From positions 81,685 through 145,684 of the forward strand of contig JBAZKF010000001.1 in assembly GCA_041650895.1 (NCBI GenBank): a DNA stretch of 64,000 bases, in the 5' to 3' direction. The DNA is from Patescibacteria group bacterium. GTDB taxonomy: Bacteria > Patescibacteriota > Patescibacteriia > 2-01-FULL-39-33. Positions 2,636 through 56,613 of the stretch are shown here, piece by piece. The notes beneath the pieces were generated by a model. That model worked only from the letters and a program-made list of their open reading frames with translations. It made no database searches and was not told where the DNA came from. The translations under genes and the position numbers were made by a program. How positions within the stretch are numbered: the first letter of the stretch is position 1; each line of letters opens with the position of its first letter.

Positions 2636-3241
2636 ATGGTTAAGCACCAAACGACCGGGTCAAGCCGTTTGACGACAAAAATCGTCATGGCTGCCGCCTT
2701 GATAGCCGCTTTGGTATTAACCGGCGCGGCCACAACTGGCAAATCGAGCATTAAAACGCGTGACTTGCAAATAAGATTAGAGACAAAAAAGGAAAAAAGC
2801 GGGGAAGAAAAGGTTAAATCGGTCAAACCGGAAAAACCCAATCCTACCAAGGAAAAACTCGAGTTTCCGTTAGCTAAAGGTGATATTCCCGATGAGAAGC
2901 TGTATGTTGGCTCGGCCGGTATGATGGTAATAAACCCGCGCTGTATTGATTATGCCGAATTGGTCAGAGCCACTTCATCCTATCAAGAGTTAAAAGAACG
3001 CAAGTTAGCGCCCAGCAGTGCCGCTTATTGGTTTCTAATTACTGAAAGCGGCGATATTGCTTGGCGGGAAACCAATAGGTATGCTGAAAAGCAAAATATC
3101 ACTTTGATCACTGATCGAGAAAATCTGGTGAAATTCCTCAAAAAGCAAACACGCTTCAAGGATAATACCCCCGAGGAGTTGATTGGCTGGTTTGATGTTA
3201 CCGATCAAATCAGCGAAATAATAAAGAACCTTAAGAAATGA
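2636..3241 (+). CDS. secreted or membrane-anchored hypothetical protein, possibly OmpH/Skp-like
   Basis: N-terminal hydrophobic helix, Lys/Glu-rich linker, C-terminus ...LIGWFDVTDQISEIIKNLKK reminiscent of the OmpH family. Shine-Dalgarno GAAGGAG upstream. Confidence 0.35.
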   Translation: MVKHQTTGSSRLTTKIVMAAALIAALVLTGAATTGKSSIKTRDLQIRLETKKEKSGEEKVKSVKPEKPNPTKEKLEFPLAKGDIPDEKLYVGSAGMMVINPRCIDYAELVRATSSYQELKERKLAPSSAAYWFLITESGDIAWRETNRYAEKQNITLITDRENLVKFLKKQTRFKDNTPEELIGWFDVTDQISEIIKNLKK

Positions 3242-3308: not shown

Positions 3309-5039
3309 CTAAGTGCTGCTACCGTTATTAATTCCGCTATCAGTCATGACCACCGCTGATCTGAATAATTTGCGCTTCATGGAAGTCAGAAAAATAAACA
3401 TTTCCTCAATCTTTAAGATTAATCCCAATACCACATAACCTAATAGTCCCAGCAAGCCGGCAATAAATCCCTGGAAAAAAATTCCCCAGAATGTTTGCAT
3501 GGACACATAATCATCAAAAAGTTGCAAAGAAAAGTAGCTTACTAGTCCCCCGCCGATGGAGGCTATAGTGATGCGCCAAGTGGAATTGGCGATGCGTCTG
3601 ATATCTAGTCGACCAATCTTGTTTCTTAAAAGTATCATTAGCAAGACCAGCTCAAAGATTGCTGATATTGACATGGCTGTCGGTAAAGCCAAAACCCGCA
3701 TATCCACATAACCCCATAAATCCGACAGGCGCAAGAGAGCGGTGGCGGCAAAAGAAAACCAATTTTGGAAGGAAAAAATAAAACGAAAAATCAATAGTGC
3801 CGCTACATTGACTATCATAGACAGTAATCCGGCGTAAAACGGTGTTTTGGTATCATGCAAGGCGTAAAAACTGCGAATGATAAGGGGGTAAGCGCCGGCG
3901 GCGAATAAGCCGATACAGAAAATAGCTAAAGAGGCGGCGGTCAAGCGGGTGTCATACCAATCAAATCGTCCGGCGCCCAGAAGTACACGGACGATTTGCG
4001 CGCGCAAAACATAAAGTATAATAGCTACCGGCACAATCAAAAACAGCGTTTGGCGAAAAGTAGTGGAGACGACTGTTACAAATTCTTGATTTTTCTTTTG
4101 TGCCGCCAGGGCAGATAATACCGGTAGAGCCGCTATGCCCAAAGATACGCCAAAGATACCCAAAGGAAAATTTTGTAAATTGTTGGAAAAAGTAAAAATA
4201 GACAGGGATCCGGCAGCCAAAGTTGAAGCTACCACGGTGATGATTAAAAAATTGAATTGACTGATACCCAAAGAGATAGTGCGCGGTACCATCATCTTAA
4301 ACACTTCCATAACATGTTTATTGCGCCAATTGAAATCCAAGCGGTATTTGAAGTCAGAACCGAATAATGGTAAGAGCTGAATGATCATATGCAGGAAAGC
4401 GCCAATGACAACACCCCAGGCCAAACCCATGACGCCGAATGGTTTAATCAAAAACAAAGCGCCAAAAATAATACCGAGATTATAAATAATCGGCGCCAAA
4501 GAATACAGAAGGAACTTACGTTGGGATTGTAAAACCGAAGAGAAGATTGATGATAAGCCGAGAAAAATCGGCGACAAGAACATAATACGGGATAGAGCGA
4601 TGACTAAGCCCATCTTTTCCGGCGCAAATCCCGGAGTGATCAAAGGCATTAATAGCGGAGCCAGGGCAAATAGCACGCCACAAGCGATCAATAAAGCGAT
4701 TGATAAAAGATTTAAAATACTGTTAATTAGTTTCCAAGCCTCTTTTTCCTGATGTTTGGCCAGAAGCGAGGTAAAAACCGGAATCAAGCCGGCCGAAACT
4801 GCGCCTAAAATCAAAAGATTATACACCAAGTCGGGTAAACGAAAGGCGGCATAATAAGCGTCAAGAATATCGCCAGCGCCGAATTGTGAGGCTAATACTC
4901 TGTCTCTGATTACGCCCAATAGCCGGCTGGCGACAGATAAACCGCCAATAATAATAGCCGCCGAGGTAATGCTCTGCGACTCTTTGTTTATTTTACTGAT
5001 CAATTTTTTGATTTTTTTAAACATTGACAATAGTAACAA
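3309..5039 (-). CDS. murJ: lipid II flippase MurJ/MviN family
   Basis: 576 aa polytopic membrane protein with MviN-like N-terminus (ASQFGAGDILDAYYAAFRLPDLVYNLLILGAVSAGLIPVF). Confidence 0.8.
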   Translation of the reverse strand: MLLLSMFKKIKKLISKINKESQSITSAAIIIGGLSVASRLLGVIRDRVLASQFGAGDILDAYYAAFRLPDLVYNLLILGAVSAGLIPVFTSLLAKHQEKEAWKLINSILNLLSIALLIACGVLFALAPLLMPLITPGFAPEKMGLVIALSRIMFLSPIFLGLSSIFSSVLQSQRKFLLYSLAPIIYNLGIIFGALFLIKPFGVMGLAWGVVIGAFLHMIIQLLPLFGSDFKYRLDFNWRNKHVMEVFKMMVPRTISLGISQFNFLIITVVASTLAAGSLSIFTFSNNLQNFPLGIFGVSLGIAALPVLSALAAQKKNQEFVTVVSTTFRQTLFLIVPVAIILYVLRAQIVRVLLGAGRFDWYDTRLTAASLAIFCIGLFAAGAYPLIIRSFYALHDTKTPFYAGLLSMIVNVAALLIFRFIFSFQNWFSFAATALLRLSDLWGYVDMRVLALPTAMSISAIFELVLLMILLRNKIGRLDIRRIANSTWRITIASIGGGLVSYFSLQLFDDYVSMQTFWGIFFQGFIAGLLGLLGYVVLGLILKIEEMFIFLTSMKRKLFRSAVVMTDSGINNGSST

Positions 5040-5070
5040 AATTTGCTAAACTGCAGTTTTTTAATTTTTT

Positions 5071-7161
5071 TTATTTTGCCATCCTGACATCAACTACTTT
5101 TACTCCCCTGCCCCTATCCAGCACCATAATCGGATTAAAATCAATTTCTTTCAGTTCCGGATATTTTGCTACCAGACAAGAAAATCTTACCAATAAATCA
5201 GCCAAAGCGCCAATATCAGCCGGTTTTTGGCCGCGCGTACCGGCTAAAAGCGGATAGATTTTCAATTCTTCAATCATTTTTTGCGCTTCATTTTTGTTAA
5301 TAGGCGCCACACGAAAGACTACGTCCTTAAACACTTCTGTATAAATTCCGCCTAAACCAAGCATAATAACGGCGCCGAATTGAGGATCTCGCTTTAGGCC
5401 GACAATCACTTGTTGGCCGCTAACCATCTCGCCTAAAAGATACCCCTTAATTTTGACTCCTTTGACTTTCTGAACAATATCCGTGTTCATCTTTTTTATA
5501 GCGGCCAGCAATTCCGTCTCATTATTTATGCCCACTTTAACCCCGCCTACATCGGACTTATGTATTACTTGAGGCGAAATAACTTTAAGTGCAATGGGGT
5601 AACCGACTCTTTTACCGGCCTTGGCGGCTAAGGAAATATCTGCAATAAACTCGGCGCGGTGCACTGGGATATCATTTTTAATCAGTAGTTGCCGACAGAC
5701 ATCCTCCGTCAATTCATTGGATAATATTTTATTGGGCTTAATGGCGGGGGCTTTTACTGTCGGTTGTTTATTTTTGAGGTATTGGTAATATTTGGCCATA
5801 GTGCTTAAGACACTGACGGCCTGCTCAGGAAAGTTGAATTGCGGTAATTTATTATCGGCAAAAGTCTGATAATATTTGACAATCTCCAATTCACCCAAAA
5901 AACATAGGACGATTGTTTTACTTGTGGTTTTTTTGATTCGGCCGATCGCTTCAGCCGTCTCTTTTATCTGCGTCATTCTCTGCGGGGTTAGCGCTACGAT
6001 TATGGCGTCAACGTTCTTATCTTTAACCACTTCGCGCAGAGCGATCTCATAACGGTCAGCCAGAGCATCACCTAAAACATCAACCGGATTATGGTTGCTG
6101 GCTGCGGCCGGTAAAACTTTTTTTAATTTAGCTTTGGTCGTTTCAGATAATTCGGCTAATTTTAATTTATAGTCTGGCAACCAGTCAGTCAAAAGAATGC
6201 CCGGGCCGCCGGCGTTGGTGACAATAGCCACGCGATTGCCGCGAGGTAAATCTTGGTAGGCAAAACCCTCAGCCAAATTAAAAAAATCCATAACATCACG
6301 CGCCTCAATCACGCCGGATTGCTTAAAGGCGGCGCTATAAACCTGGGCAGTGCCAGCCAGCGATCCGGTATGGGAAGAAACAGCTTGACTGCCGTCCGCG
6401 GTCTTACCTGATTTTAAAACAATAATCGGCTTTTTATCGGAAATTTTATTGGCTATAGATAAGAACTTTTGGCCATCATTAATGCTTTCCAGATAAGCCA
6501 TTATGACCTTGCTGTTTTTATCTTGGTTGAAATATTCCAAAAGATCCAGTTCGTTAATATCACACTTATTGCCCATGGACACAAAATAAGAAAAGCCGAG
6601 TTTCTGGGCTTCGGCCGTATCTAAAATAGCCGTACCTAAAGCGCCGGATTGGGAAAAGAAGGCTACATTGCCCGCCTTGGGGAAGGTGGCGGCAAAGGAA
6701 GCGTTTACTGACGGCTTAGTATTGATATAACCTAAGCAGTTCGGACCGAGTATCCGCAGTTTATATTTATTTTTTAATTGCAGTAATTTTTCTTCCAATT
6801 TAACTCCCTCACCGCCAACTTCTTTAAAACCAGAAGAAATAATCAAAATATTTTTTGTTCCTCTCTTGCCACAATCTTCCACTACAGCCAATACAAATTG
6901 CGCCGGCACGACAATAATCGCTAAATCAGGAATCTGTGGCGTTTTTAAAATTGACGAATATGCCGGCTTGCCCTCTATCTTGGTTTCAGAAGGATTAATG
7001 GGAAAAATCTCGCCCCGGTAATTGACCAAGAGATTCTTTATCACATCATTGCCGACTTTACCGGTATGATTGGAGGCGCCGATTATTGCTACGCTTCGCG
7101 GGTTAAAAAACGATTTAAGGCTATTCATAGTATCTAATTTATAATAATCTAATTTTACCAT
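5071..7161 (-). CDS. acetyl-CoA synthetase (ADP-forming), fused alpha/beta subunits (NDP-forming acyl-CoA synthetase family)
   Basis: CoA-binding N-terminus SVAIIGASNHTGKVGNDVIKNL, succinyl-CoA-synthetase-like ligase domain, C-terminal ATP-grasp. 696 aa. Confidence 0.8.
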   Translation of the reverse strand: MVKLDYYKLDTMNSLKSFFNPRSVAIIGASNHTGKVGNDVIKNLLVNYRGEIFPINPSETKIEGKPAYSSILKTPQIPDLAIIVVPAQFVLAVVEDCGKRGTKNILIISSGFKEVGGEGVKLEEKLLQLKNKYKLRILGPNCLGYINTKPSVNASFAATFPKAGNVAFFSQSGALGTAILDTAEAQKLGFSYFVSMGNKCDINELDLLEYFNQDKNSKVIMAYLESINDGQKFLSIANKISDKKPIIVLKSGKTADGSQAVSSHTGSLAGTAQVYSAAFKQSGVIEARDVMDFFNLAEGFAYQDLPRGNRVAIVTNAGGPGILLTDWLPDYKLKLAELSETTKAKLKKVLPAAASNHNPVDVLGDALADRYEIALREVVKDKNVDAIIVALTPQRMTQIKETAEAIGRIKKTTSKTIVLCFLGELEIVKYYQTFADNKLPQFNFPEQAVSVLSTMAKYYQYLKNKQPTVKAPAIKPNKILSNELTEDVCRQLLIKNDIPVHRAEFIADISLAAKAGKRVGYPIALKVISPQVIHKSDVGGVKVGINNETELLAAIKKMNTDIVQKVKGVKIKGYLLGEMVSGQQVIVGLKRDPQFGAVIMLGLGGIYTEVFKDVVFRVAPINKNEAQKMIEELKIYPLLAGTRGQKPADIGALADLLVRFSCLVAKYPELKEIDFNPIMVLDRGRGVKVVDVRMAK

Positions 7162-7716: not shown

Positions 7717-7781
7717 GGCCCAGTCAATGCCGCTGATAATAAGCGGCAGGTCGTATACACGTCATTGCCGTCGCCATCAAC
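7717..7781 (-). pseudogene. decayed duplicate of a 66-bp internal segment of the downstream lipoprotein gene
   Basis: 7717-7781 matches 8133-8198 (inside the CDS at 8037-8921) except for a 1-nt indel and one substitution. The indel breaks the frame, so this is a remnant. Confidence 0.5.
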
Positions 7782-8036
7782 AATTACGGTTTTTTAACTT
7801 CCTTAATTATCGCTCGTTTTACCATCGGAGCGAAAAAATCATCGCCCCTCAATAAACGAAGCCACTGCTGCCCAGTTTGTCCGTGTTTTTTATAATTATT
7901 AGATATTAGAGAATTTTCTGCCTCCATTATTGAGGTAAATGGCCCCCTAACATCAATATCATCGGAATGGGATTTGGTGATAATAATTACGTAATTTCCA
8001 GTCCCCATCTCTACTATCCTTTCAAATGTTCTAGTC

Positions 8037-8921
8037 CTAGTCTTCCCAGGCGAAATCAATGTTTACATTCAGCCCCCCAAACGCGTCCGATTCCACGTAA
8101 GGAAAGGACAACGCATCAGAGAAACTGAATTCGGCCCAGTCAATGCCGCTGATAATAAGCGGCAGGTCGCAATACACGTCATTGCCGTCGCCATCAACGA
8201 CGTAGAGTACGCCACCGCCGAAGTTTAGTGGCAGGTAGGACTTAAAGACCATTTCCGCCTTGCCCCAAACCCATGAGGCATAGTAACTCGCGCCGTCCGG
8301 AGAAATCAGCGTTGAATGACCATATCCCCACTCATCAGCCTGATACCAACCGGGCAGGTTGGTGACGCTAAATTGGAAAGGATAGTTGTAAACAAAGTTC
8401 ATCACCAGGTTTTCATTCCTGTTGATGCCACCCTCCACGGTAACATCCTTCCAGCCAAACAATAGCTGATTGCCGTAGTCATCCTGGAAAGAGATAGACA
8501 GGTAGTAAGTCCCGGGCCGAATTCCGCCGCAATGAGCGCGGAATTGATGGTCGATGATCGGCACATAGAAGGAGTAATAATCGGTCCCGCCTCCCTTACC
8601 TATTTCCACTCCATTATCGGTAGAATATAGGTAGATGTAAATGCGTGTGGCCTGATCCTTGAGTGAATCTCCAATTTCTTGGAGTTCCTCCTGATTCAAG
8701 CCACTAATTCCGTCGCCGTTGTAACCGCCACCCTTTTCCAGGGATTTGGTCACTTCGCCGACGAAATCGTGGTTGATCTTTTCGACGACGGCCGACAAAT
8801 CTCCTTCGATCCAGAACCCGCCGAGTTCGGCTTCGGGGATGGTTTCGGTAATCGGCGGACAGCCCGCCAGAGTCATAGCCGAGACAGTCAGAATGGCAAA
8901 GAGAATGGTAGTGTAACGCAT
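8037..8921 (-). CDS. lipoprotein, hypothetical
   Basis: N-terminus MRYTTILFAILTVSAMTLAGCPP has a signal peptide and a lipobox (LAGC). 294 aa. Confidence 0.6.
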   Translation of the reverse strand: MRYTTILFAILTVSAMTLAGCPPITETIPEAELGGFWIEGDLSAVVEKINHDFVGEVTKSLEKGGGYNGDGISGLNQEELQEIGDSLKDQATRIYIYLYSTDNGVEIGKGGGTDYYSFYVPIIDHQFRAHCGGIRPGTYYLSISFQDDYGNQLLFGWKDVTVEGGINRNENLVMNFVYNYPFQFSVTNLPGWYQADEWGYGHSTLISPDGASYYASWVWGKAEMVFKSYLPLNFGGGVLYVVDGDGNDVYCDLPLIISGIDWAEFSFSDALSFPYVESDAFGGLNVNIDFAWED

Positions 8922-36647: not shown

Positions 36648-36779
36648 AAAGATAATGCTGTTATTTTAGCCGATAGACAAAAATTAGGCAAACTAAAACC
36701 GTTTAAGGCTTCTCTAATTAAAAAAGCTCTGTGCAATATTGAACAGAGCGTAACTATGGATTGCATGCAGTAATAGCAT

Positions 36780-37031
36780 TTATGCCTTTAATGCAGCATC
36801 AATGATTTTCAAAGCGATTTCTTCACTAAACTCGCTTATTAGTTGGCTATATATCTCTTTTGTAACATCAAATCCCGCAGCGATTACCTTAATAGCTTGA
36901 TTCTCACCAAAACCCGCGCTTTGCATTGCGCCATAAATTTTCTTTAAAGCCTCAAAATATCCTTTGGAGTAACTCTTCTTATATCCATCTTCCTATGTCT
37001 CATCCATAGACACTTCTAATGAGTCAGGCAT
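36780..37031 (-). pseudogene. small ORF (83 codons) with an in-frame TAG after codon 12
   Basis: Strong Shine-Dalgarno AAAGGAGG lies 6 nt upstream of the ATG at 37031. The reading frame is MPDSLEVSMDET*EDGYKKSYSKGYFEALKKIYGAMQSAGFGENQAIKVIAAGFDVTKEIYSQLISEFSEEIALKIIDAALKA*. It is absent from the ORF track because of the TAG codon at 36993-36995 (minus strand). Confidence 0.3.
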
Positions 37032-37049
37032 ATTATTCCTCCTTTCTCA

Positions 37050-37502
37050 TTATTCAATACTAAATACTAAAGTATTGGCAGCAACCCAGCAATTTTCAAA
37101 ACATTTTGCCTGCTCTCCAGGCCAACGGAAAATCAATCCATCGGATTTGCCTGACAACCGATTGCATTTGCCGTTCAATTGAATAAATGAAAGAAATGAT
37201 TCTCTGCTTTCCATATAAACCTTATCAGAATAATGTGTCGAAGAATGAGAGGGAGCAATAAGAAAAACAAAAGCCTTGCCGTAACGTTTTTCCAATTCAC
37301 CTTTAATAACACAGCGGAATTCCACACTACCAACAGTAACCGTTTGTGAATGCAAATCTCGCGGATCGTACGCTTCCCATTCCAATGAACAAATATCGCC
37401 ATGTTTTAAAACGGCCGATAAAGCCTCAAGCTCATTACGCTCTTTTGGCAATCTGGCTGTAATTGTGAACAATTTTTTCTCCGGCTCATAATCAAATCTC
37501 AT
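37050..37502 (-). CDS. hypothetical protein (150 aa)
   Basis: Shine-Dalgarno AAAGGAG upstream. Its own sigma-70-like promoter sits at about 37560-37607. No recognisable motif. Confidence 0.45.
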   Translation of the reverse strand: MRFDYEPEKKLFTITARLPKERNELEALSAVLKHGDICSLEWEAYDPRDLHSQTVTVGSVEFRCVIKGELEKRYGKAFVFLIAPSHSSTHYSDKVYMESRESFLSFIQLNGKCNRLSGKSDGLIFRWPGEQAKCFENCWVAANTLVFSIE

Positions 37503-37692
37503 ACCTTGCTCCTTTCTGTCTTTTCGTCTATGCAGTAATTTAAAATCGTAATTTTGTTTTCAAGGTTCGACTAATAGGTCATTTTACCAGATATTTTAAA
37601 ATTGTCAAACTAAAACTGTTTAAGGCTTCTCTGTGTCTTAATATTAAATCAATAATTTAAAAGCAAAAAACGTCTACTCGCTTGAGTAAACG

Positions 37693-38136
37693 TTAAAAAT
37701 CGGAAATAACTACTTGGGAAAAACTGAATTTATCAGCAACAATTTTATAGCTCGGAACTAAGACCTTATGGGCTTGTAAAGGCGCTTGCGACAAATCTTT
37801 ATCATAATCATTGCCGATTACCAACAATTCCTCATCCTTAATGCCAAAAAATCGTAAAATCTGCTGATAAATCTTAGGGTACATGGAAAGCCTGAAAAAA
37901 CCATCGAATATTTCCAAGCCAAAAGGCGCTGTACCATTAAGGGTGGCGGCTAAATCCAATTGCATGTTAGTCAAATCGGAGTCAGAACTGGTAACTGTTT
38001 TAATTTTCAAATTTTTAGCATGCGAAATGAATTCTATAAAGCCCGGCCGTGGCGGCAAAGCATTTTCATAGTCATCAGAACAAAGAATGGTCCCGTAAAC
38101 ATCAAAAGCTATCACTTTTATTTGAGCCATGATCAT
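37693..38136 (-). CDS. HAD-superfamily hydrolase-like protein (short, dehalogenase-like motif I)
   Basis: Motif I IAFDVYGTIL (D-x-Y-G-T). Only 147 aa. Confidence 0.5.
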   Translation of the reverse strand: MIMAQIKVIAFDVYGTILCSDDYENALPPRPGFIEFISHAKNLKIKTVTSSDSDLTNMQLDLAATLNGTAPFGLEIFDGFFRLSMYPKIYQQILRFFGIKDEELLVIGNDYDKDLSQAPLQAHKVLVPSYKIVADKFSFSQVVISDF

Positions 38137-38176
38137 CTCCTTTTATTGTAAAGACATGACTAAACGAACCTTCTAA

Positions 38177-38382
38177 TGCTGTATTTTAAAGATAGCTCGA
38201 ACGCATTTTGGCTGTCCGCCAGAGGCGGACGCAGATTTTCTTCCCGACGAAATCCAATCCTGATTCTGATTTACGGCAATTTCCAGTTTTTCAATGAGTT
38301 AATCATAACTCATTTCAGTAAATTTTTCAAGAGCTGATTTATTGAAAAATTTACTGGGTTTGGCGGCAAATTCTTTTAGCTC
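38177..38382. repeat. composite inverted repeat L: inverted copy of Q (40066-40160) fused to inverted copy of S (40417-40525)
   Basis: 38179-38273 is the reverse complement of 40066-40160 and 38274-38382 is the reverse complement of 40417-40525. Both are essentially identical by eye. Confidence 0.8.
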
Positions 38383-38450
38383 TTTGAAAATTAAATAAAA
38401 AAAGAGGTGGCCGTCAACCGTGTTGACTTCCACCTCGGGTACTAATCGAC

Positions 38451-39824
38451 TTACTCGATTCTATCTAAGAATCCCAAAATCGATTTCTCTAACTCCGGAT
38501 GTCTGCGTATCTTGTCCGCATAGTGCCTTTTCTGCTTATCCGCAGAGTGATACTCGCTGACGATCTCTTGGCGCGCCCGATCCCATTGTTTCTGATCCAT
38601 TCCGGTTTTGTAGATGACCTTGTCTGTTGTGTAGTCGTCATAGCCGGTAATGGTGTCGCCGGGATTCAATCGGTTTGCCGTTACTGTTCCAGGAAACGGC
38701 ACTTCAAAACTGACACGTAACTGGTCGGCTCGAAACGGCAAAGATTCGAGAGCTTGCTTTTCAGCTTCAACATCGGTGGCAGTCATGCCAAGACCGCCGA
38801 TCATGAAATATGCGCGTGTCAGAATTCCAGCTTCGTCGCACAAGCCATAAGCCAACTCAGGATTTCCGGGTCGTTTGCCTCTTTCAGTGCGGACATCAGT
38901 TCGAGCAAATTCCAAGCCCATCATCGCCATAAATATTCCGGCGCGCTTCATGGCCTGCACCATTTCGCGATCCAAATTGAAATCAGGCAGACAGAAAGCG
39001 GGAAACGGACCTCGTTTTTCCATTTGCTGGCAGAGTTCCATTACCCAACCGCGGTCGGCGTTGAATAACGGATTGGCGATGATGTAAACAAGACCCGGTC
39101 CGAATCGTTTATCGAGCGCGCACATCTCATCGACGATATTGGTCGGCGAACGATGTAGGGTCTTGGGCGACATTATCCACGATGAACAATAGTCGCACCG
39201 GCCGTCGCAACCGAATGATCCGGCGATTGTGATACGTTTTGTCGGGTTTTTGATCAGTGTTTCCGGTGGGGCGAAGAGAATTTCATTCTTCGTGAATCTC
39301 GCCATGAACTCCTCAAAACGCAACGGCCACGGCAAGTCATCTAACGGATAAGGAGATTGACAGCCACCAGACAACTCTCTGACTTGAACAACACCTCGTT
39401 TGGCGCTACCAGCAGAGATATCATCCAACAACTGTGGCAATGCTCTCTCGCCTCGTCCCTTTACTACGAAATCGGCTCGTCCCTCTTCAAAAACTACCTT
39501 GGCCATTCTACCGACTCCTGCATGGTATCCGCCGTAAATGATCGGCACCTTCCCCTTGAAATTTTCGGCCACGCGATCGGCCAAAGATTTCGTATAGCTG
39601 TAAGGGAAAAGAGCCACTGCATCACAATCGCCGGCCTTGACGGCGGAGATAATCTGTTCTACTTGTGCGGTATCTTGCCGTACATAGCGAACTGACCAGC
39701 CAGCAAATTGTTCGACGCAAGCCGCAACAAGTTGAGCGCCGATTTCTTCCCGACCGATTCGGGTTTGACCGCTACGATCGGTTACAACCGATAAATCTGT
39801 GTCAACAAAAACAATCGTTGGCAT
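38451..39824 (-). CDS. B12-binding radical SAM protein (class B-like)
   Basis: N-terminal Rossmann-like B12-binding domain. CDGRCDYC (C-x3-C-x2-C) radical SAM cluster motif. 457 aa. GC visibly higher (about 50%) than the flanks. Strong Shine-Dalgarno AAAGGAGGG. Confidence 0.85.
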   Translation of the reverse strand: MPTIVFVDTDLSVVTDRSGQTRIGREEIGAQLVAACVEQFAGWSVRYVRQDTAQVEQIISAVKAGDCDAVALFPYSYTKSLADRVAENFKGKVPIIYGGYHAGVGRMAKVVFEEGRADFVVKGRGERALPQLLDDISAGSAKRGVVQVRELSGGCQSPYPLDDLPWPLRFEEFMARFTKNEILFAPPETLIKNPTKRITIAGSFGCDGRCDYCSSWIMSPKTLHRSPTNIVDEMCALDKRFGPGLVYIIANPLFNADRGWVMELCQQMEKRGPFPAFCLPDFNLDREMVQAMKRAGIFMAMMGLEFARTDVRTERGKRPGNPELAYGLCDEAGILTRAYFMIGGLGMTATDVEAEKQALESLPFRADQLRVSFEVPFPGTVTANRLNPGDTITGYDDYTTDKVIYKTGMDQKQWDRARQEIVSEYHSADKQKRHYADKIRRHPELEKSILGFLDRIE

Positions 39825-39900
39825 AAAACCCTCCTTTCAGTCGAGTTTTGCTAATAACACCTGATGTTTCAAAGAACATCCCTCACATTGGGAATATCCA

Positions 39901-39929
39901 ATTTTAGCAAATATTTATCAAAATGTCAA
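39901..39929 (-). promoter_or_regulatory. sigma-70-like promoter of the radical SAM gene
   Basis: Minus strand TTGACA (39924-39929), 17-bp spacer, TAAAAT (39901-39906). Confidence 0.5.
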
Positions 39930-40018
39930 CCCAAATAAAAAATGTCTGAAATGCGTCAAAAAAAACAGAAATCATAATAATTTCTGCAGTCAAATAAACA
40001 TAAAAATTTTCTTTTACC

Positions 40019-40259
40019 AAAATGCGGTTCGACCCGATATTTTTTCCGGTTCTTTGGCGGTTTTTTAAATCAGAATCAGGATTGGATTTCGTCGGGAAGA
40101 AAATCTGCGTCCGCCTCTGGCGGACAGCCAAAATGCGTTCGAGCTATCTTTAAAATACAGCACCAGAAAGGAATAGTCAAATTTTTCCGCTCCTCGCCAC
40201 CGCAGGCGGCGACCAAATCATACGGAATTTTATAATCAAAAAGTAATTGGCGGTTTTGT
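40019..40259. repeat. repeat block m (40019-40045), P (40046-40065), Q (40066-40160), IRa (40161-40259)
   Basis: m is the reverse complement of 41737-41763. P is the reverse complement of 40542-40561. Q is the reverse complement of 38179-38273. IRa is the reverse complement of 41764-41862 with 1 mismatch in 99. Confidence 0.8.
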
Positions 40260-40338
40260 CTGAATATTAATTCAGGGTAAAAGAAAAATTTTATGTTTAT
40301 TTGTCATTATCAGAATTAAATTATCATTAAAATATCAA

Positions 40339-41899
40339 TATGAAATACTTCATTTACGCTCGCAAGAGCACCGAAGACGAGGATCGTCAGATACTTTCAA
40401 TCGAAGCTCAGATTACTGAGCTAAAAGAATTTGCCGCCAAACCCAGTAAATTTTTCAATAAATCAGCTCTTGAAAAATTTACTGAAATGAGTTATGATTA
40501 ACTCATTGAAAAACTGGAAATTGCCGATTCATTTTTTGAATCAAAAACCGCCAAAGAACCGGGCCGAAAGATTTTCGGCGAAATACTGGCCAGAATAGAG
40601 CAAGGCCAAGCTGATGGCATCCTATCGTGGCATCCAGATCGCTTGGCGCGTAATAGCGTTGACGGTGGCAAGATTATTCATTTGGTTGATAGAGGAGTGA
40701 TAAAGGCCCTCAAATTTCCTTGCTTCTGGTTTGAACCCACCCCGCAAGGATTATTTATGCTAAATATCGCTTTCGGCCAATCAAAATATTTTGTGGACAA
40801 TTTACGGGAGAACGTAAAGCGAGGATTAAGACAAAAGCTAAGGAACGGTGTTTGGCCGTCTTTTGCGCCAGTGGGCTATCTAAACAATGCGAGAACTCGA
40901 GGCATTGATGTGGATACTGTTAAGAGCGACAAAATCAGGAAAGTGTTTGAACTTTACGCCACTGGCAATTATGCGCTTTTGTCTTTAGTTAATTGGTGCG
41001 AAGCTAACGGCTTGACTGGCGGTTATCATCGCAAATTGTCCGTTAATGCGATATTTAGCATGTTACAAAATATTTTCTACCTTGGTTTGATGCGCTACAA
41101 GGGTGAAGTATTTGAGGGCACTCACGAGCCATTAATATCAAAGAAATTGTTTGAAGAGGTGCAAAAAGTGCGCAATACCCGAGCGAGGACACGAAAAAAA
41201 TTACACAGAGAGTTTGCATTTACTGGACTAATGAAATGCTTGTGCGGTTGCTTCATTACCGCAGAAACACAGAAAGGCCACAACTATTATCGTTGTACGA
41301 AAAAACGAGGCGAATGCACTGAAAAGCACTTTTTGCGCGAGGAAGAATTGGAATCACAAATCAAACAATATCTTCAAACAATTGCTTTGAACGACCAAGA
41401 CCAGGAAAAGATTATGATTGAGTTGGACAAAGACGAACTAACAGCCAAAACGCAAGCTCAGACCAATGTTCAAAATCTCAAAAGCGAGTTAGAGAATATT
41501 AATCAGCAATTAGAGAAACTGCTTGATGTCTATTTGAGCGATACAATCTCGACTGACGAATACACCGCTAGAAAACAAAAAATCCTAACTCGCAAGTTAG
41601 AACTTAATGAGAAAATCAAAGATTTTGAACATAATAACTGGTCTTGGGTCGAACCGGCTCGTGAGTTTATTTTATCGCTCAACCAAGCTGATAATCTGCT
41701 ACGAAATTCAGAAAAGTCAGATCTGGCCGCATTTCTAAAAAATATCGGGTCGAACCGCATTTTACAAAACCGCCAATTGCTTTTTGATTATAAAATTCCG
41801 TATGATTTGGTCGCCGCCTGCGGTGGCGAGGAGCGGAAAAATTTGACTATTCCTTTCTGGTGCGCCCAGCTGGACTCGAACCAGCGACCATCAGCTTAA
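40339..41899 (+). pseudogene. large serine recombinase (resolvase/invertase N-domain, recombinase domain, zinc ribbon, coiled coil), disrupted
   Basis: N-terminus MKYFIYARKSTEDEDRQILSIEAQITELKEFAAK carries the catalytic Ser motif. An insertion of about 70 bp with an in-frame TAA at 40498-40500 follows. The frame then resumes as LEIADSFFESKTAKEPG, and a +1 shift in a G4 run (40560-40563) leads into RKIFGEILARIEQGQADGILSWHPDRLARN... (track ORF 40643-41899). The zinc ribbon CLCGCFITAETQKGHNYYRCTKKRGEC is present. The last 42 nt overlap tRNA-Lys. Confidence 0.7.
41737..41862. repeat. inverted repeats m' (41737-41763) and IRb (41764-41862)
   Basis: Reverse complements of 40019-40045 and 40161-40259. 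IRb ends 5 nt into the CCA end of tRNA-Lys. Confidence 0.8.
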
Positions 41900-41933
41900 A
41901 AGGCTGTTGCTCTACCGACTGAGCTATAGGCGC
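41858..41933 (-). tRNA. tRNA-Lys (anticodon UUU), CCA encoded
   Basis: Manual fold of gcgcctatagctcagtcggtagagcaacagccttttaagctgatggtcgctggttcgagtccagctgggcgcacca: 7-bp acceptor stem, D stem gctc/gagc, anticodon loop cuUUUaa, T-loop ttcgagt. Confidence 0.9.
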
Positions 41934-42103
41934 GTAATGTTTAGTATTAAATTGTTTTATCTTTCTTAGTTGCTGTTCGACCTGTCGGTCGAAGTTGCTC
42001 TTCCTCAACAGCGCTGATTTTATGAAACTATTTAATATTATACAGTAAATAATTTCTTTTGGCAAGTCCCTTGTGGAGAAATAAATCAAAACAAATATTG
42101 CTC

Positions 42104-42132
42104 TTGACAAAATATTAAAAATACTGTAAGAT
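42104..42132 (+). promoter_or_regulatory. sigma-70-like promoter of the 42208-44506 operon
   Basis: TTGACA (42104-42109), 17-bp spacer, TAAGAT (42127-42132). About 75-nt leader. Shine-Dalgarno AGGAG. Confidence 0.5.
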
Positions 42133-42207
42133 ATGTTGAAGTTCGTTAAAAGCACTTTAAAACTTAATGTTTCAGATTAGCCGTTAAACAGCCAACCGCC
42201 CAAATCA

Positions 42208-42765
42208 TTGGGCAAAATAGGAGAAAAAGCCATGGCCCCGCATTGTCTGCTACCCAATTGTATACTACTCATCTTCCTTTTTCTTGTTGCCTTGCAAATC
42301 ACGCCGTTTATAATTTTTTGGGCCTGGCTAAGCTGTTCCGCGATCAAGGCATTTGTTACCGACAATAAATCCTGGCACTTGAGTAAAAAACAGGATTGGT
42401 TTCTCTATAACTTTTGCCTATACCGATCTTTTCTTTACGAGGTTGTTAGTTTTACGGAACTTAGCGATGATATTGAGCGTGGCTATCAAGCAATAAAAAG
42501 CACCAACAACAATTACTTGGTTGTTATAAGGGATGTACTTATTATTTATCTTATTAACCTCATCATCTTGGCCATCTCATTCTTTGCCCTAACGGTTATA
42601 TTAGTAGTCGTTACCATAACTTTCCCGATCAGTCTTTATGTTTTCCTGGCCATGTCAGGGTTCGCTTTGATCATTGGGACTGGTTATGTGTCCTTACGCC
42701 TGGCGCGTTTCTTCTATCGCCTGCAAAGAAGGCTGAACATATCCGGAGAAAAAATAAAGTTTTAA
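42208..42765 (+). CDS. membrane protein, hypothetical (paralog A)
   Basis: Three predicted transmembrane helices. C-terminal motif LRLARFFYRLQRRLNISGEKIKF shared with the next gene. Confidence 0.5.
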   Translation: MGKIGEKAMAPHCLLPNCILLIFLFLVALQITPFIIFWAWLSCSAIKAFVTDNKSWHLSKKQDWFLYNFCLYRSFLYEVVSFTELSDDIERGYQAIKSTNNNYLVVIRDVLIIYLINLIILAISFFALTVILVVVTITFPISLYVFLAMSGFALIIGTGYVSLRLARFFYRLQRRLNISGEKIKF

Positions 42766-42792
42766 AACCGCAACCAATTGGGAGGATAAAAA

Positions 42793-43296
42793 ATGCATTC
42801 CTTCATGCCCTTTGCCGGCTGGCTTTTCCTAATGGTCTTTGTCTTGACCCCCGTCTCTTACTACAGCTGTTTGCTTATCAATTGGACTATTCTTTATGTT
42901 AAAGACGAAAAATGGCAAGCCTCCAAAACAATCAGGGATCTGCGTTATTATCTCTGTTGGGAGTGGCTGATTTCTGGAATTCTCGATGTGCTGAACCGAA
43001 CAGAAAATAACTTGCTAGACCTAACAGGAAATAACTATTATGATAACATCTTAAAGGAAGGCATAGACTACTACATCGGAATTCCCTTTATTGCGAATGT
43101 CATTATGTTTATTTTCTTTATTTGCGTTACTCTGGTGAGTCTGATAATTCTTATAGAATTTGGCTTATTCTGGCTCTTAGCAATATTGGGGCTGATACTC
43201 TGTGCCGCGATTTATTACCTTGTTATTCGCTTGATACGCTTCTTCTATCGTATGCAAAAAAAATTAAACAAAAAAGGCAAAGAGGTGGCTTTTTGA
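42793..43296 (+). CDS. membrane protein, hypothetical (paralog B)
   Basis: Shine-Dalgarno GGAGG. Same topology as paralog A. C-terminus VIRLIRFFYRMQKKLNKKGKEVAF. Confidence 0.5.
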   Translation: MHSFMPFAGWLFLMVFVLTPVSYYSCLLINWTILYVKDEKWQASKTIRDLRYYLCWEWLISGILDVLNRTENNLLDLTGNNYYDNILKEGIDYYIGIPFIANVIMFIFFICVTLVSLIILIEFGLFWLLAILGLILCAAIYYLVIRLIRFFYRMQKKLNKKGKEVAF

Positions 43297-43378
43297 GAAC
43301 CGCCGGAAACCAACATATGAGCCAAACCCGTCTTGCGCTCATAGAACTAAACACTGTTATATCGGATAGGAGGCATGA

Positions 43379-44506
43379 ATGACGAATAAAGAAAATCCCG
43401 ATGCCATTACTTTACCAAAAATCAAAGGAGTGGTAGAAATACCCAACTGCGGACTTTATGCCAAGGGTCCGCGAAAATTAAGAAAGCTCTTTGAGTGGCT
43501 AAGCCAATACTACGATATTGAGGACTGTTCCAAGAATGAAAGCTACCCCTCTCCCGGCACTTGGTATGCCAGAATAAAGCCGAGCTTGGTGCATGAATGT
43601 GTCAAATGTAATTGGTGCGGATCCTATATAAACCCAGTGGGAGTCGGTATCCATGGTCATCGTTGCGAAATCTGCAATAAGATAACAATGGAAAGATTCA
43701 CCCATAACGGCACGATCCGTTTCCGTTTCGCAGATGACTGCGATATTTCCGATATTGAAATGAGAATATTCGGCTATGATGACGCTACCGAAAGCATACT
43801 GCTCTATCCGAATATAGTATCAAGCGAAAGATGCTTCATACTTACACAACAACAAGCTCATAAAAAATTCAAAAGATTTTCTGCTAGCTGGCAAGAGGTG
43901 GAACGCAACGGCCAAAAGCTGATCGCCATCCCCAGAAGCAATATTAATTCGGTTGAGATCATAGGCCAAAAAAGACATTATAAAGCAGTCAGACTATTTG
44001 CCGGTAAAGAGTACGATGGTTGGCCCCTCAACGATCTGCCCGTCACTGAGTCATACATGATTTATGAGGCCTGGCGTTGGGCGCCACTTAGGCCATCGCC
44101 AAAACTGCACGAGAGCATAATCCATGCCGCAGGCATGGTCAGTCGAGTTGATTTTTATTATCAGGATGGTCGCCGGGCCTTTGACGACATTCACCTTCAA
44201 CGCATGCGGCGATTTGTCCATCATTTTACCACTCTTGACCTTAATGAGTGGGATCGGATGATCAGCCAAAATGATTTATCCGGCCCAAGCATGATTAGGG
44301 CGATCGCTCGTCTCTGCCACCCCAACGCACAAGTACGAAATAAACCGAACATCAGCAATTTAATTGACGCCACTGCTAAAATCGCTGATGGAGAAAGTCT
44401 TTGTATGAATGAAATGATGGCCGCAGCCGATGCTCTGAAAAATCCCAGAATCTGCAGGGAGTTCATTGATATTATGGGATGTGGTATCAAAATCCAAAAC
44501 ATATAA
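43379..44506 (+). CDS. hypothetical protein with N-terminal zinc ribbon
   Basis: Shine-Dalgarno AGGAGG. CVKCNWCGSY...HRCEICNK (C-x2-C...C-x2-C). 375 aa, no other recognisable motif. Terminator at 44521-44555. Confidence 0.5.
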   Translation: MTNKENPDAITLPKIKGVVEIPNCGLYAKGPRKLRKLFEWLSQYYDIEDCSKNESYPSPGTWYARIKPSLVHECVKCNWCGSYINPVGVGIHGHRCEICNKITMERFTHNGTIRFRFADDCDISDIEMRIFGYDDATESILLYPNIVSSERCFILTQQQAHKKFKRFSASWQEVERNGQKLIAIPRSNINSVEIIGQKRHYKAVRLFAGKEYDGWPLNDLPVTESYMIYEAWRWAPLRPSPKLHESIIHAAGMVSRVDFYYQDGRRAFDDIHLQRMRRFVHHFTTLDLNEWDRMISQNDLSGPSMIRAIARLCHPNAQVRNKPNISNLIDATAKIADGESLCMNEMMAAADALKNPRICREFIDIMGCGIKIQNI

Positions 44507-44666
44507 AACAAAACAAGCACCTTACGGAGCTCCGGCCAAACTGGAGCTCTTTTTAATTTCCGCCTTCTTAATATTAAGAAGGCTTTTTTAATACAAAATT
44601 TTAACACAAAAAAAGCCGGCGCCATAAAGCAACCGGCCCTAACAAAAAGTTTCAAATGAGCAAAAG

Positions 44667-45455
44667 TCAAATGGAAAGGGAGGAACGATAACCGTCGAGC
44701 TGTTCCTTCCAAACCTGAAGGAGTTTTGGCTGAGCCGGTTCTGTTACAAACCATTGAACCTTTTGCCAATACGACAAATAAGGTGACGGATTAAATAGAC
44801 GATCACTAAGAGCTAACTGCTCAATCAATGCCCGGCCATTGGAAAATTCTGCGAATAAGCTATTAACAGCACGGATACCAGTCAGACCCAAATCAGCCCA
44901 AGTTACCAGGATTTCGCCATCACTTGAAGCCAACTCTTTGGCTATAGGCGGAGCAGATTCATCACTCTCAACTAATATTTCAAACATGCGCCGGTTAGGC
45001 AGACGATCGCCTGCCGATACATAACAGCCGTTTGCTGTCGGCCATAACACAATCCCGCACTTCTTAAAATGGATAAAACAAGAAGCACACAAAGAAATTC
45101 GCAAATCAAATTTACTCTTTTGACCTTCCACTAAGCGGAAATTCCACCAATTGCTGGGCAAAAAATCCGAATTATTTTCTTGCGGATTATTATCCACTAA
45201 AGTAAAAATTTCATTATAGCAATCGGGACGCAGTTGCTGCCGAATCCCTAGGGAAGCCAAAACCGCCAGCAATCTATTATCCAATACATATTCTTTAATC
45301 GGTTTGGAAGACGCTCCCGGCCGATCCGAATATAAATAGCCAAACTCCAACCCCTTAAAGGCTATGGCCTTTTGCAGAAGATCCGATTCCGTTAAAGCTT
45401 CTTGACCGACTACCAAAGGTCCGAACATTGGAGGCGAAACGACTTTATTTCCCAT
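44667..45455 (-). CDS. hypothetical protein (262 aa)
   Basis: Long ORF convergent with the preceding operon. No motif recognised. Confidence 0.4.
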   Translation of the reverse strand: MGNKVVSPPMFGPLVVGQEALTESDLLQKAIAFKGLEFGYLYSDRPGASSKPIKEYVLDNRLLAVLASLGIRQQLRPDCYNEIFTLVDNNPQENNSDFLPSNWWNFRLVEGQKSKFDLRISLCASCFIHFKKCGIVLWPTANGCYVSAGDRLPNRRMFEILVESDESAPPIAKELASSDGEILVTWADLGLTGIRAVNSLFAEFSNGRALIEQLALSDRLFNPSPYLSYWQKVQWFVTEPAQPKLLQVWKEQLDGYRSSLSI

Positions 45456-45671
45456 AATCCTACTCCTTTCTATTGTTGTTCAGTACTGTTTAAAGTGCGA
45501 ATTAAACAAAATCTGTCTAATTGTCTGGATAGAGATTACAACAAAGTGGGCAAAAAAGCAAGCCTTTGGACCTAATAAAGTTATACCCCTTGGCGTGTGC
45601 ATAAACTGTCCAAAACTCTTCAAAACCGGTGGTTTGCCAAGGTGGGACAATTAAGGTAAAATGTAAGGGAC

Positions 45672-47069
45672 TTGAATGCCCTAAAGGTGACAAATATGTC
45701 CGACAACTCCTTACGCAAACTGCCGCCGCAAAACCTGGAAGCCGAGCAATCGCTTTTAGGCGCTTTATTGATTGACAAGGATGCCATTATCAAAATCGCC
45801 GATCTCATCACATCCGAAGATTTTTACCAGACGGCGCACGGCATTATCTATTCTGTCATTTTGGAATTGTTTGAACGCAAAGATCCGATTGACATTTTAA
45901 GTTTGAGTAGCCGATTGAATGAATTGGGTAAAATCGATCTGGTTGGCGGACGCAGTTATCTGATTACCCTGACCAACCAAGTGCCTTCGGCGGCGCATGT
46001 CGTATCTTATGCGCAAATCATCCAGAAAAAAGCCACCCTGCGCCGACTGATTGCCGCCGCTTCCAATATTTTGGATCTGGGCTATCAAGAAGACAAAGAA
46101 GTCAACGAAATCCTGGACAAGTCCGAGCAGTCTGTTTTCGCGGTTTCGCAAAAATTCTTAAAAGAAAAATTCACCCACATCAAAGATGTGCTGACTGGCG
46201 CCTTTGACCGCATTGACGAATTGCATCGCGAGAAAGGCAAGTTGCGCGGTTTGCCCACCGGCTTTACTGAAATGGATAACGTTTTAGGGGGGTTGCAAAA
46301 ATCCGATTTGATTATTCTGGCCGCCCGCCCTTCGGTCGGCAAGACGGCTTTGGCCTTGGATATCGCCCGCAACGCCGCCATCCGCCACAAAAAATCCGTC
46401 GGCATCTTCTCGTTGGAAATGTCCAAGGAGCAATTAGTTGATCGTTTGATTTCTGGCGAAGCAGGAGTAGATATGTGGAAGATGCGTACCGGCCGACTAT
46501 CCGAAGCCGGCGAAGATTTCCCCCGTATCGGCCACGCCATGAGCGAATTGTCGGAAAGCAATATTTTTATTGACGATTTTGCCAACACTAATGTCATGGA
46601 ACTCCGCACCAAGGCGCGAAGATTGCAAATTGAACATGGACTGGATTTGATCATCCTGGATTATTTGCAATTAATGGAGGGTTCGGGTAGCCGCCAATCA
46701 TCGGAAAGCCGCGTGCAAGAAATCGCCGAAATATCCCGCGCTCTTAAGGGTTTGGCGCGCGAACTCAATATCCCCGTTTTGGCGCTATCCCAGTTATCCC
46801 GCGCCGTGGAAATGAATAAGCCGGCCATCCCTAAGTTATCGCATTTGCGCGAATCCGGCTCCATTGAACAGGACGCGGATGTGGTTATGTTTATTTATCG
46901 CAAGGCCTCCGACAGGAATTTTGACATCAATTCCTTAACCGAAGAAGAAAAGCACTCGGCGGAAATCCATGTCGCCAAACACCGCAATGGCCCGACCGGC
47001 CTGGTGCATTTGTATTTTGAAGGCAATACTGTATCATTTAAAAATTTAGACAGAAGCTATAATCAATAA
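45672..47069 (+). CDS. dnaB: replicative DNA helicase
   Basis: N-terminus LPPQNLEAEQSLLGALL. Walker A GARPSVGKTALAL. RecA-like C-domain. 465 aa. Confidence 0.95.
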   Translation: MNALKVTNMSDNSLRKLPPQNLEAEQSLLGALLIDKDAIIKIADLITSEDFYQTAHGIIYSVILELFERKDPIDILSLSSRLNELGKIDLVGGRSYLITLTNQVPSAAHVVSYAQIIQKKATLRRLIAAASNILDLGYQEDKEVNEILDKSEQSVFAVSQKFLKEKFTHIKDVLTGAFDRIDELHREKGKLRGLPTGFTEMDNVLGGLQKSDLIILAARPSVGKTALALDIARNAAIRHKKSVGIFSLEMSKEQLVDRLISGEAGVDMWKMRTGRLSEAGEDFPRIGHAMSELSESNIFIDDFANTNVMELRTKARRLQIEHGLDLIILDYLQLMEGSGSRQSSESRVQEIAEISRALKGLARELNIPVLALSQLSRAVEMNKPAIPKLSHLRESGSIEQDADVVMFIYRKASDRNFDINSLTEEEKHSAEIHVAKHRNGPTGLVHLYFEGNTVSFKNLDRSYNQ

Positions 47070-55619: not shown

Positions 55620-56012
55620 TTAATCGTTAATCAGCTTCTGCCTCTTTCTCCGACGCCAATTAACCAAAAACAAGATCCCCACTAAAAACGCCCCGCCGGA
55701 AATTTCCAACATCCAGAACAACATATACCACTCGAAAGGGTTGTTAAGCACCATGGCAATGTATGTCAGTCCAAACAGGACAAAAACAATCCCGCCGACT
55801 ATCTCGTATTTCCAAGAAACGATAATGATCGCCAAAAGGATTAAGGCCGGGATATTGTGTATCAACAGGCCGAGTACCGTCGGCCAAAATCGCAGCCCCA
55901 TAGAGAAGATATCCAAAGAAAACAGGGCCAGAAAGCCGACAAACAGCAACCCCAAAATCCTGGGTAACCAATAGATTAACTGATTGATTACTTTGTTTTT
56001 TTCTAATGACAT
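55620..56012 (-). CDS. membrane protein, hypothetical (130 aa)
   Basis: Four hydrophobic helices. Shares an identical 5' UTR and MSL start with 56195-56428. Confidence 0.45.
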   Translation of the reverse strand: MSLEKNKVINQLIYWLPRILGLLFVGFLALFSLDIFSMGLRFWPTVLGLLIHNIPALILLAIIIVSWKYEIVGGIVFVLFGLTYIAMVLNNPFEWYMLFWMLEISGGAFLVGILFLVNWRRRKRQKLIND

Positions 56013-56194
56013 AGGATTTGAGTTATTAATAAAAAAAATTAAAGGCCAACTCTTAATTTTACTTTATTAAAAAGTCATAATTTTTAGGTTTTACTTCATG
56101 ATGAGGTAGGGGTTCCAGACGTAGGGTTTCCATAGCGATTTAAATTAATTTAATAATTAAAAGCTGACGTTTCGTCATAATGTGGCACAAATAA

Positions 56195-56428
56195 TCATCC
56201 GACATTAACCAATGCGCCTACGGCAACAACCGTTAAAATCAAAATACCGATACCCAACAAGAAAGATAGAATACAGGCGATTAGCCAAATATTATTAATC
56301 TTTATGTTTTGCTCTCGGCCCAATATCTTCCTAAACAACATAACCACTCCCCAGGCCAATACAAACAAAAATAACAAAATAATCGCCCAAAAAATTGCTT
56401 TTATCACTAACGCCGGTATTAATGACAT
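56195..56428 (-). CDS. small membrane protein, hypothetical (77 aa)
   Basis: Two hydrophobic helices. Duplicated promoter-start module. Confidence 0.4.
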   Translation of the reverse strand: MSLIPALVIKAIFWAIILLFLFVLAWGVVMLFRKILGREQNIKINNIWLIACILSFLLGIGILILTVVAVGALVNVG

Positions 56429-56613
56429 AGGATTTGAGTTATTAATAAAAGTTTTAGTTATTAATTGACAATAGAAATAGACTCAAAAACATTACCTTAT
56501 TCTAGCTATTTTTACTTCAAGTATTAACAAAATAATAATTATGCGCTAATTTATCAATTATAAGTTACGAAACAATGCGATAGGAGTAGTACAGCCAGAA
56601 AAGGAGAAAAGCG

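Follow-up and report, generated by a model that had tools for sequence, protein, structure and literature searches.

Within a 64,000-nt stretch of a Patescibacteria contig (termed here the window), the forward strand encodes at positions 40340-41899 a large serine recombinase that is now a pseudogene and whose reading frame runs into the 3' end of a tRNA-Lys gene. Upstream of it lie a mosaic spacer, a cargo gene for a B12-binding radical SAM (S-adenosylmethionine) protein and, just beyond the end of that gene, a conserved double-hairpin element. The recombinase is interrupted by a 66-nt, stop-carrying insert, an inverted copy of which lies within the double-hairpin element. As argued below, the insert was probably copied into the gene from that nearby element, and it falls at the exact centre of a short site that is constrained at the nucleotide level and recurs at the ends of cargo genes in related loci.

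Direct translation of 40340-41899 yields 519 codons in one frame, the only internal stop being a TAA at 40499-40501. Translation, homolog identity and three Pfam domains identify the product as a large serine recombinase, as had been proposed in an original prediction made from the sequence alone: an N-terminal catalytic Resolvase domain with its serine nucleophile (PF00239; E = 3.1e-15) is followed C-terminally by Recombinase (PF07508; E = 6.3e-12) and Zn_ribbon_recom (PF13408; E = 5.3e-8) domains, from which site-specific recombination catalysis is predicted for this enzyme clade. The motif YARKST, which includes the catalytic Ser10 (codon 40367-40369), aligns with the homologs. The open reading frame (ORF) departs from that of an uninterrupted large serine recombinase only at the TAA, which lies inside the insert; the protein is 87-90% identical to intact homologs of 492-497 aa and carries no other lesion. 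The original prediction had in addition described a frameshift, which it attributed to a run of four Gs at 40560-40563 and which would have left an ORF at 40643-41899 as an out-of-frame downstream body. The run was miscounted: the letters read CGGG, with three Gs at 40561-40563. Moreover, 40340 and 40643 share one frame, 40643 being merely the first TTG after the stop, and a G-tract frameshift is therefore ruled out by direct translation of the gene. The in-frame TAA that had been placed in the extra segment is real, though it occupies 40499-40501 rather than 40498-40500.

The recombinase belongs to a large clade, specific to the Candidate Phyla Radiation (CPR), for which more than 7,800 homologs were found. 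Characterized relatives are distant: phage large serine recombinases share only 24-27% identity with the window enzyme, and the top match in the PDB (3g13; E = 1.6e-5) covers the catalytic domain alone. The tRNA-Lys gene (anticodon UUU) lies at 41858-41933 on the reverse strand, as identified by ARAGORN and by Rfam model RF00005 (73.9 bits), and the recombinase ORF extends over its 3' end. The stop codon (41897-41899) lies 42 nt within the tRNA gene and overlaps the anticodon complement, just as had been predicted; however, the overlap is not peculiar to this gene, since recombinase ORFs run into the 3' end of a tRNA throughout the family, at 53 related loci and at least 13 tRNA types.

The insert itself (40442-40507, forward strand), which was delimited by protein alignment, inverted repeats and folding, comprises exactly 22 codons that translate as PSKFFNKSALEKFTEMSYD*LI and that lie between EFAAK and EKLEI. 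These codons are absent from all 13 aligned homologs (64-90% identity). An extra segment of about 70 bp after EFAAK had been predicted, together with an alignment to homologs as the way to locate its ends; the segment is indeed present, but that alignment fixes its extent at exactly 66 nt and returns the residues 'EK', which had been counted with it, to the canonical sequence. The two predicted hairpins are likewise there: hairpin 1 (40444-40484) has 15-bp arms (40444-40458 and 40470-40484) around an 11-nt loop, and hairpin 2 (40486-40507) reads AATGAGTTA-TGAT-TAACTCATT. The junctions, gccaaa|ccc...att|gaaaaa, contain no duplicated bases and hence no target-site duplication, and the inserted unit consists of two separate hairpins.

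Arm b1 (40418-40441, forward strand), which corresponds to recombinase codons 27-34 (ELKEFAAK), matches the copy at 38359-38382 at 24 of 24 positions, and arm b2 (40508-40526, forward strand), which encodes EKLEIA, matches the copy at 38274-38292 at 19 of 19. Consequently the insert plus its 24- and 19-nt flanks (40418-40526, 109 nt) is 100% reverse-complementary to 38274-38382, a unit on the reverse strand, termed here module B', that consists of b1, hairpin 1, hairpin 2 and b2, that lies downstream of the radical SAM gene at a distance of 69 nt from its stop codon, and that is the presumed donor. The repeat near the radical SAM gene that had been noted earlier is thereby borne out, and inverted. 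The 64-kb window contains just these two copies of the double-hairpin unit. In four independent contigs (loci L001, L003, L006 and L007), whose recombinases are 86-88% identical to that of the window at the DNA level, the module is present and is 92-99% identical, yet the recombinase junction, gccaaa|gaaaaa, is uninterrupted.

The module recurs widely, and always between the same arms. A hairpin-pattern scan of metagenomes found 32 further loci, in every one of which the same arms enclose the unit and what precedes it is T-rich or terminator-like sequence rather than a gene. A covariance model, which scores module B' at 113.8 bits, gave 52 strong matches, all of them between arms b1 and b2. 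Only two of the 52 are joined to a recombinase body (window 40423-40526 and L071 5031-5121), and each of these gene-borne copies is the same variant as the cassette copy of its own locus (identity is 100% across 109 nt for the window and 98.9% across 89 nt for L071). That all 52 matches are framed by b1 and b2, with no dispersed copies in unrelated contexts and no target-site duplication, disposes of a free mobile palindromic element of the MITE (miniature inverted-repeat transposable element) or REP (repetitive extragenic palindrome) kind, an option that the original prediction had raised.

Between near-invariant arms, 32 of 35 unique modules contain exactly two hairpins of varying sequence; at least eight different hairpin-1 stems and at least six different hairpin-2 stems were read from the sequences. 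In an alignment of the modules 96.8% of cells are paired and nine pairs are changed on both sides, with a covariation score of 0.092 versus 0.033 in shuffled alignments (none of 500 shuffles reached the observed values); controls in which the alignment was slid gave just 30-55% pairing. Loops are found in either orientation, such as TCCATTTTTAA (L014) and TTAAAAATGGA (L016). Neither strand is clearly preferred: folding energy is lower for the sense strand in 20 modules and for the antisense strand in 12, and G·U pairs number 14 in the sense and 24 in the antisense direction. Inter-arm lengths at other loci are not multiples of three. An Rfam scan of 37500-42500 found tRNA only, and thus no known RNA family corresponding to the module; nor were arms seen that co-vary with the gene of their own locus, the arms being near-invariant everywhere. 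Judged by sequence, the module is a conserved cis element, namely a 36-nt site split at its centre by two hairpins, that marks the 3' end of cargo-gene cassettes. Two further features were read from the module sequences: a sigma70-like TTGAAA-17-TATGAT lies within the module in the sense direction (window 40470-40498, forward strand; 38330-38302, reverse strand), and in the AT-rich module type hairpin-2 loops of the form NNNT give TANNNT.

The explanation favored here, to which a probability of roughly two in three is assigned, is gene conversion from the local module, resulting in a recent pseudogene of a tRNA-3'-end-adjacent CPR/Patescibacteria large serine recombinase. The module at 38274-38382, 2 kb upstream, would have served as template for the 66-nt stop-carrying double hairpin, which would have entered the gene at codon junction 34|35 by homology-directed repair or gene conversion through the 24- and 19-nt arms that module and gene have in common; the direction of copying, like the mechanism, is presumed, and would be from module to gene. 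Local templated copying is inferred because the gene-borne copy is the locus's own variant both in the window, where the insert shares the lineage-specific loops of the local module (100% identity), and in L071, and because relatives carry the module but have an uninterrupted gene junction. The inactivation is taken to be recent because the rest of the gene remains so close to its intact homologs and has no other lesion. The product is presumably non-functional, in that the 53-aa N-terminal peptide has Ser10 and the remainder does not, and the island would now be locked in place. Several points weigh against this explanation: arms of 24 and 19 nt are short for RecA-type recombination; the arms carry no diagnostic differences that would mark a conversion tract; the evidence comes from assembled contigs, so that either fixation in the population or a reversible state is possible; and the position of the insert at an exact dyad centre, together with a deletion at that same point in L007 and L013, is equally predicted by recombinase cleavage.

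This last point concerns the properties of the interrupted site, which consists of recombinase codons 29-34 (AAAGAATTTGCCGCCAAA) and 35-40 (GAAAAACTTGAAATTGTC) and which, as read from its sequence, is weakly dyad-symmetric (AATTT...AAATT) about the point of insertion. When third-position conservation was compared over nine-codon stretches of 38 distinct full-length genes, the top score fell on codons 30-38 (0.836 versus a mean of 0.582), and the third-highest stretch was KNIGSNRIL (0.798), termed here segment E'; the best-conserved protein motifs score just 0.54-0.62, and the catalytic motifs about 0.54-0.58. The high-scoring stretches are therefore constrained at the nucleotide level, and it is these same pieces that recur in the non-coding mosaic upstream of the gene. 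In at least 12 loci the covariance model also detects an unsplit site (36-38 nt, without hairpins) at the end of a cargo gene, about 1 kb upstream of the recombinase and on the opposite strand, where it directly follows the cargo ORF and is itself followed by GC-hairpin sequence of the type termed A' below. Thus the hairpins are an insertion at the exact center of a conserved site.

Lesions cluster at this b1|b2 site. Besides the window insert, these include the loss of one nucleotide, the G of GAA, exactly at the b1|b2 junction and thus at the dinucleotide interrupted in the window, which causes a frameshift in two independent datasets (L007 1596-1790 and L013 1582-1776); the case of L108, in which homology to the gene begins exactly at arm b1; and that of L071 (4160-5121), in which a 219-aa cargo ORF, a terminator and the module are fused to the recombinase body in place of its promoter and first 28 codons, while a second, ordinary copy of the module lies on the opposite strand at 2933-3023. 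Simple inversion was rejected as the origin of L071 and L108, as no N-terminal recombinase fragment occurs at a distance of up to about 5 kb from either. The family contains a further, independent inactivation: in L006 (4124-7092) the recombinase is split by an IS110-family insertion with its transposase gene at 4465-5571.

Among the alternatives to gene conversion, the one that fares best, though it is judged unlikely, is that b1|b2 is a genuine crossover site and that the hairpin unit entered through action of the recombinase at the central dinucleotide, either by cleavage and aberrant repair or by site-specific exchange with the site at a cassette end. Such action would account for the exactly central insert in a weakly dyad-symmetric site, for the gene's strongest third-position conservation there, for the unsplit copies at cargo-gene ends, for the occurrence of at least eight unrelated hairpin-1 sequences at one position, for the single base missing from the same junction in L007 and L013, and for the breakpoints at the arms in L108 and L071. 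Set against this, b1|b2 is a candidate site by sequence; to our knowledge no large serine recombinase has a site within its own coding region; the full identity to the local module is equally predicted by plain gene conversion; and a fragment of only 66 nt could not serve as a conventional circular substrate.

It is a good deal less probable that the interrupted gene is a functional state, whether a reversible OFF switch, a source of a truncated DNA-binding protein (N-terminally truncated, catalytically dead and driven by the sigma70-like promoter at 40470-40498) or a case of ribosomal bypass from the AAA at 40439-40441 to the AAA at 40511-40513. The promoter-like match in the sense direction and the TANNNT-forming loops of AT-rich modules are what the second version would call for, the insert length is a multiple of three and leaves the downstream body intact, and L071 has a similar layout of module and recombinase body. 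However, promoter-like matches occur in the region at the frequency seen in shuffled sequence (8 found versus 7.9 expected) without enrichment, GC-rich module variants have no such promoter, and the inter-arm lengths elsewhere do not preserve the frame. The putative take-off codon, moreover, is followed by CCC, with the stop 57 nt further on, unlike in T4 gene 60, and gene-borne copies make up just 2 of the 52 modules.

Finally, the insert is not an artefact of one assembler, as three assemblies agree on the arrangement. Positions 36757-45899 are 100% identical to a 314,752-nt MEGAHIT contig (L041) built with k = 141, a word length exceeding the 109-nt repeat; the 53-aa N-terminal ORF, including the insert, is annotated at NCBI as 'recombinase family protein [Patescibacteria group bacterium]' (MFA5124322.1) and is encoded on a contig of 957,791 nt; and a Logan contig (L040), which corresponds to window 38353-40022, breaks off after precisely 30 nt (k-1) of the repeat, the point at which a k = 31 graph should stop when the reads contain the repeat in two contexts. 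Hence, although the region is densely repeated, its junctions are exact and the judgment is made from assembled contigs, an assembly or chimera artefact arising from the 109-nt repeat or from strain mixing is highly improbable: in the absence of a real insert the gene and the module would share merely 24 and 19 nt, too short to mislead these assemblers, and the surrounding mosaic is kept in independent datasets.

The genes and repeats that surround the recombinase form an architecture that is itself conserved. The radical SAM gene (38451-39824, reverse strand; identified by Pfam) stands between module B' and the mosaic spacer, in a slot whose content varies: within similar frames, different genes are found there in L003, L006, L007 and L071. 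On the far side of the module lies segment A (38171-38273, forward strand), an inverted repeat of 40066-40168 with a terminator-like hairpin at 38213-38231. Segment A opens with TTCTAATGC (38171-38179), which is a 7/9 direct match to TTCTGGTGC at the tRNA end (41855-41863); this 9-nt match is the only candidate for a far-end direct repeat of tRNA 3' sequence, the long repeats being inverted. That segment A might be a degenerate copy of tRNA-Lys was rejected, its global alignment score of 26 lying below a shuffled mean of 34 ± 8. All that recurs at a similar offset across loci is a short TCGAAC motif.

The mosaic spacer (39991-40303, forward strand), which separates the cargo from the recombinase, consists of nothing but reverse-complement copies of sequence from close by, arranged as D-E-F-A'-C. 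Its pieces are D (39991-40018, the reverse complement of 40276-40303), E (40019-40045, of 41737-41763), F (40046-40065, of 40543-40562), A' (40066-40168, the inverted repeat of segment A) and C (40160-40259, of 41764-41863), followed by a palindrome (40260-40275) and D' (40276-40303). The order D, E, F, A', C is kept in L001 (where it is flipped), L003, L006, L007, L009 and L071; it is not reproduced by a degraded inverted gene copy, by a circular permutation or by a single recombinase reaction, each of which was considered as its origin and rejected. On the reverse strand at 39958-39990, just past segment D', a hairpin (CAGAAAT-N7-ATTTCTG) is followed by T8, with similar hairpins in L009 and L053; it has the appearance of a terminator closing off the mosaic block ahead of the cargo promoter.

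The last 100 nt of the recombinase region, C' (41764-41863, forward strand), end 6 nt inside the tRNA gene and form a 99% inverted repeat of 40160-40259, so that C and C' bracket the recombinase gene in the window. The same holds in 31 of 34 related loci, where the last ~100 nt of the gene recur in inverted orientation 16-160 nt upstream of the start codon (89-100% identity, and 98-100% in most) and where the 27-nt E' recurs about 230-340 nt upstream. Close inspection of 12 loci showed that, wherever a tRNA lies at the 3' end, the repeat extends 6-8 nt into it, and that this end co-varies with the local tRNA (tggtgc, tggtgg, tggctcc); past it, in most of 39 loci, the upstream copy runs on into a conserved motif containing TCGAAC. 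The bracketed segment occurs in both orientations: L001 and the window differ exactly by inversion of the segment from C to C', and L093 and L102, in which an upstream tRNA shares the strand of the recombinase, correspond to the flipped state, as opposed to the 53 loci in which it is convergent at the 3' end. The inverted orientation is thus known from a comparison between lineages (L001, L093, L102).

Where the window has a single cassette, L009 (5700-8060) and L053 (1800-4700) have tandem arrays of two to three cargo units, each of about 1-1.35 kb and with the site at its end; a unit in L009 consists of a conserved leader, a differing ORF, the b1|b2 site or the module, and an A'-type trailer, and the pattern in L053 is similar. 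Several recombinase paralogs per genome occur in two metagenome-assembled genomes (L044 and L062 in CAZAOT01; L105 and L117 in JAHISE01), in one of which they lie at two different tRNAs, tRNA-Arg and tRNA-Leu; such paralogs suggest spread inside a genome and possible action in trans. Elsewhere in the window, exact direct repeats with a spacing of 416-417 nt occur at two places (7717-8198 and 56004-56450), and two neighboring small ORFs of membrane type, paralogs of each other, follow shortly after the tRNA-Lys (42208-42765 and 42793-43296); neither the first of these nor a 375-aa ORF at 43379-44506 has a Pfam match.

The original prediction had also allowed that the palindrome might behave as a recombinase site, and of the two options this is the more interesting: the conserved site, the bracketing repeats and the occurrence of both orientations together suggest a candidate recombination site of a cassette-type system. 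A broader reading along these lines is put forward tentatively, as possible rather than probable. It holds that b1|b2 is a crossover or binding site of a serine-recombinase gene-cassette system in CPR bacteria, with copies both in recombinase codons 29-40 and at the 3' end of every neighboring cargo gene. Cargo cassettes would then be derived from recombinase units and stacked beside a tRNA-targeting recombinase; hairpins at the site center would lock the cassette ends; the internal site would make the recombinase self-targeting, inserts such as that in the window amounting to built-in self-inactivation; and the ~100-bp inverted repeats that end 6-8 nt inside the tRNA would belong to the same machinery.

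Considered in isolation, the gene is a genuine pseudogene but an unremarkable one, an integrase in decay. Its insert, however, exposes a conserved, structured, nucleotide-constrained site, and the layout around this recombinase clade is widespread and apparently undescribed, in that no published description of such a layout (bracketing repeats, internal site and cargo ends) was found in the literature searched. If b1|b2 is a real recombination site, the system would be a serine-recombinase counterpart of integron- or SCC (staphylococcal cassette chromosome)-type gene capture, would be relevant to CPR organisms, whose routes of gene exchange are poorly known, and could be a source of new site-specific tools that recognize tRNA ends.

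The architecture resembles SCC elements, integron cassettes and Hin/Gin invertible segments, yet it fails defining features of each. As in the SCC elements of staphylococci and enterococci, which encode the large serine recombinases Ccr, a large serine recombinase adjoins a conserved gene at that gene's 3' end, the limits of units are marked by short core repeats, and variable cargo units without a recombinase of their own are stacked beside it (here, the L009 and L053 arrays). On the other hand, the SCC target is rlmH whereas the target here is the 3' end of many tRNAs, the enzyme is as distant from characterized ones as its identity to phage enzymes implies, and the system here has long inverted repeats as unit ends and a copy of the site inside the recombinase coding region. 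The likeness to integron attC and attI sites is that each cargo gene is closed by a site whose outer arms are conserved and whose center is variable and forms hairpins, that the cargo genes are divergent from the recombinase gene and at times in arrays, and that ORF stops abut the site. In integrons, however, the enzyme is the tyrosine recombinase IntI rather than a serine enzyme, whereas here the two arms lack mutual complementarity, roughly half of the lineages have a hairpin-less site, and the matching site, a candidate one, lies within the recombinase ORF.

The Hin/Gin/Cin systems likewise have a recombinase gene between inverted repeats that occurs in both orientations (compare L001, L093 and L102 with the 53 convergent loci) and a cis-acting nucleotide element in the 5' coding region of the recombinase, which in Hin/Gin is an enhancer. 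They differ in that their enzyme is a small serine recombinase with a C-terminal helix-turn-helix and their sites are of 26 bp, as against a large enzyme and ~100-bp near-perfect repeats here, the flipping of which may be homologous recombination; moreover, no switched gene is evident here. Like REP/BIME (bacterial interspersed mosaic element), Correia and RUP (repeat unit of pneumococcus)-type MITEs, the insert is a short, hairpin-forming, non-coding sequence that breaks an ORF, but here there are no dispersed copies and no target-site duplication, the two arms are always the same, and the donor is local. The AAA...AAA of the window could match the bypass of T4 gene 60, except that the stop does not directly follow the take-off codon. 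The archaeal integrases of the SSV (Sulfolobus spindle-shaped virus) type are tyrosine recombinases, and here the tRNA-side junction is at the 3' end of the gene; nevertheless, with their attP inside the integrase gene they offer a parallel to the present arrangement, in which a candidate site lies in the coding sequence of its own recombinase and recombination at it would split the gene.

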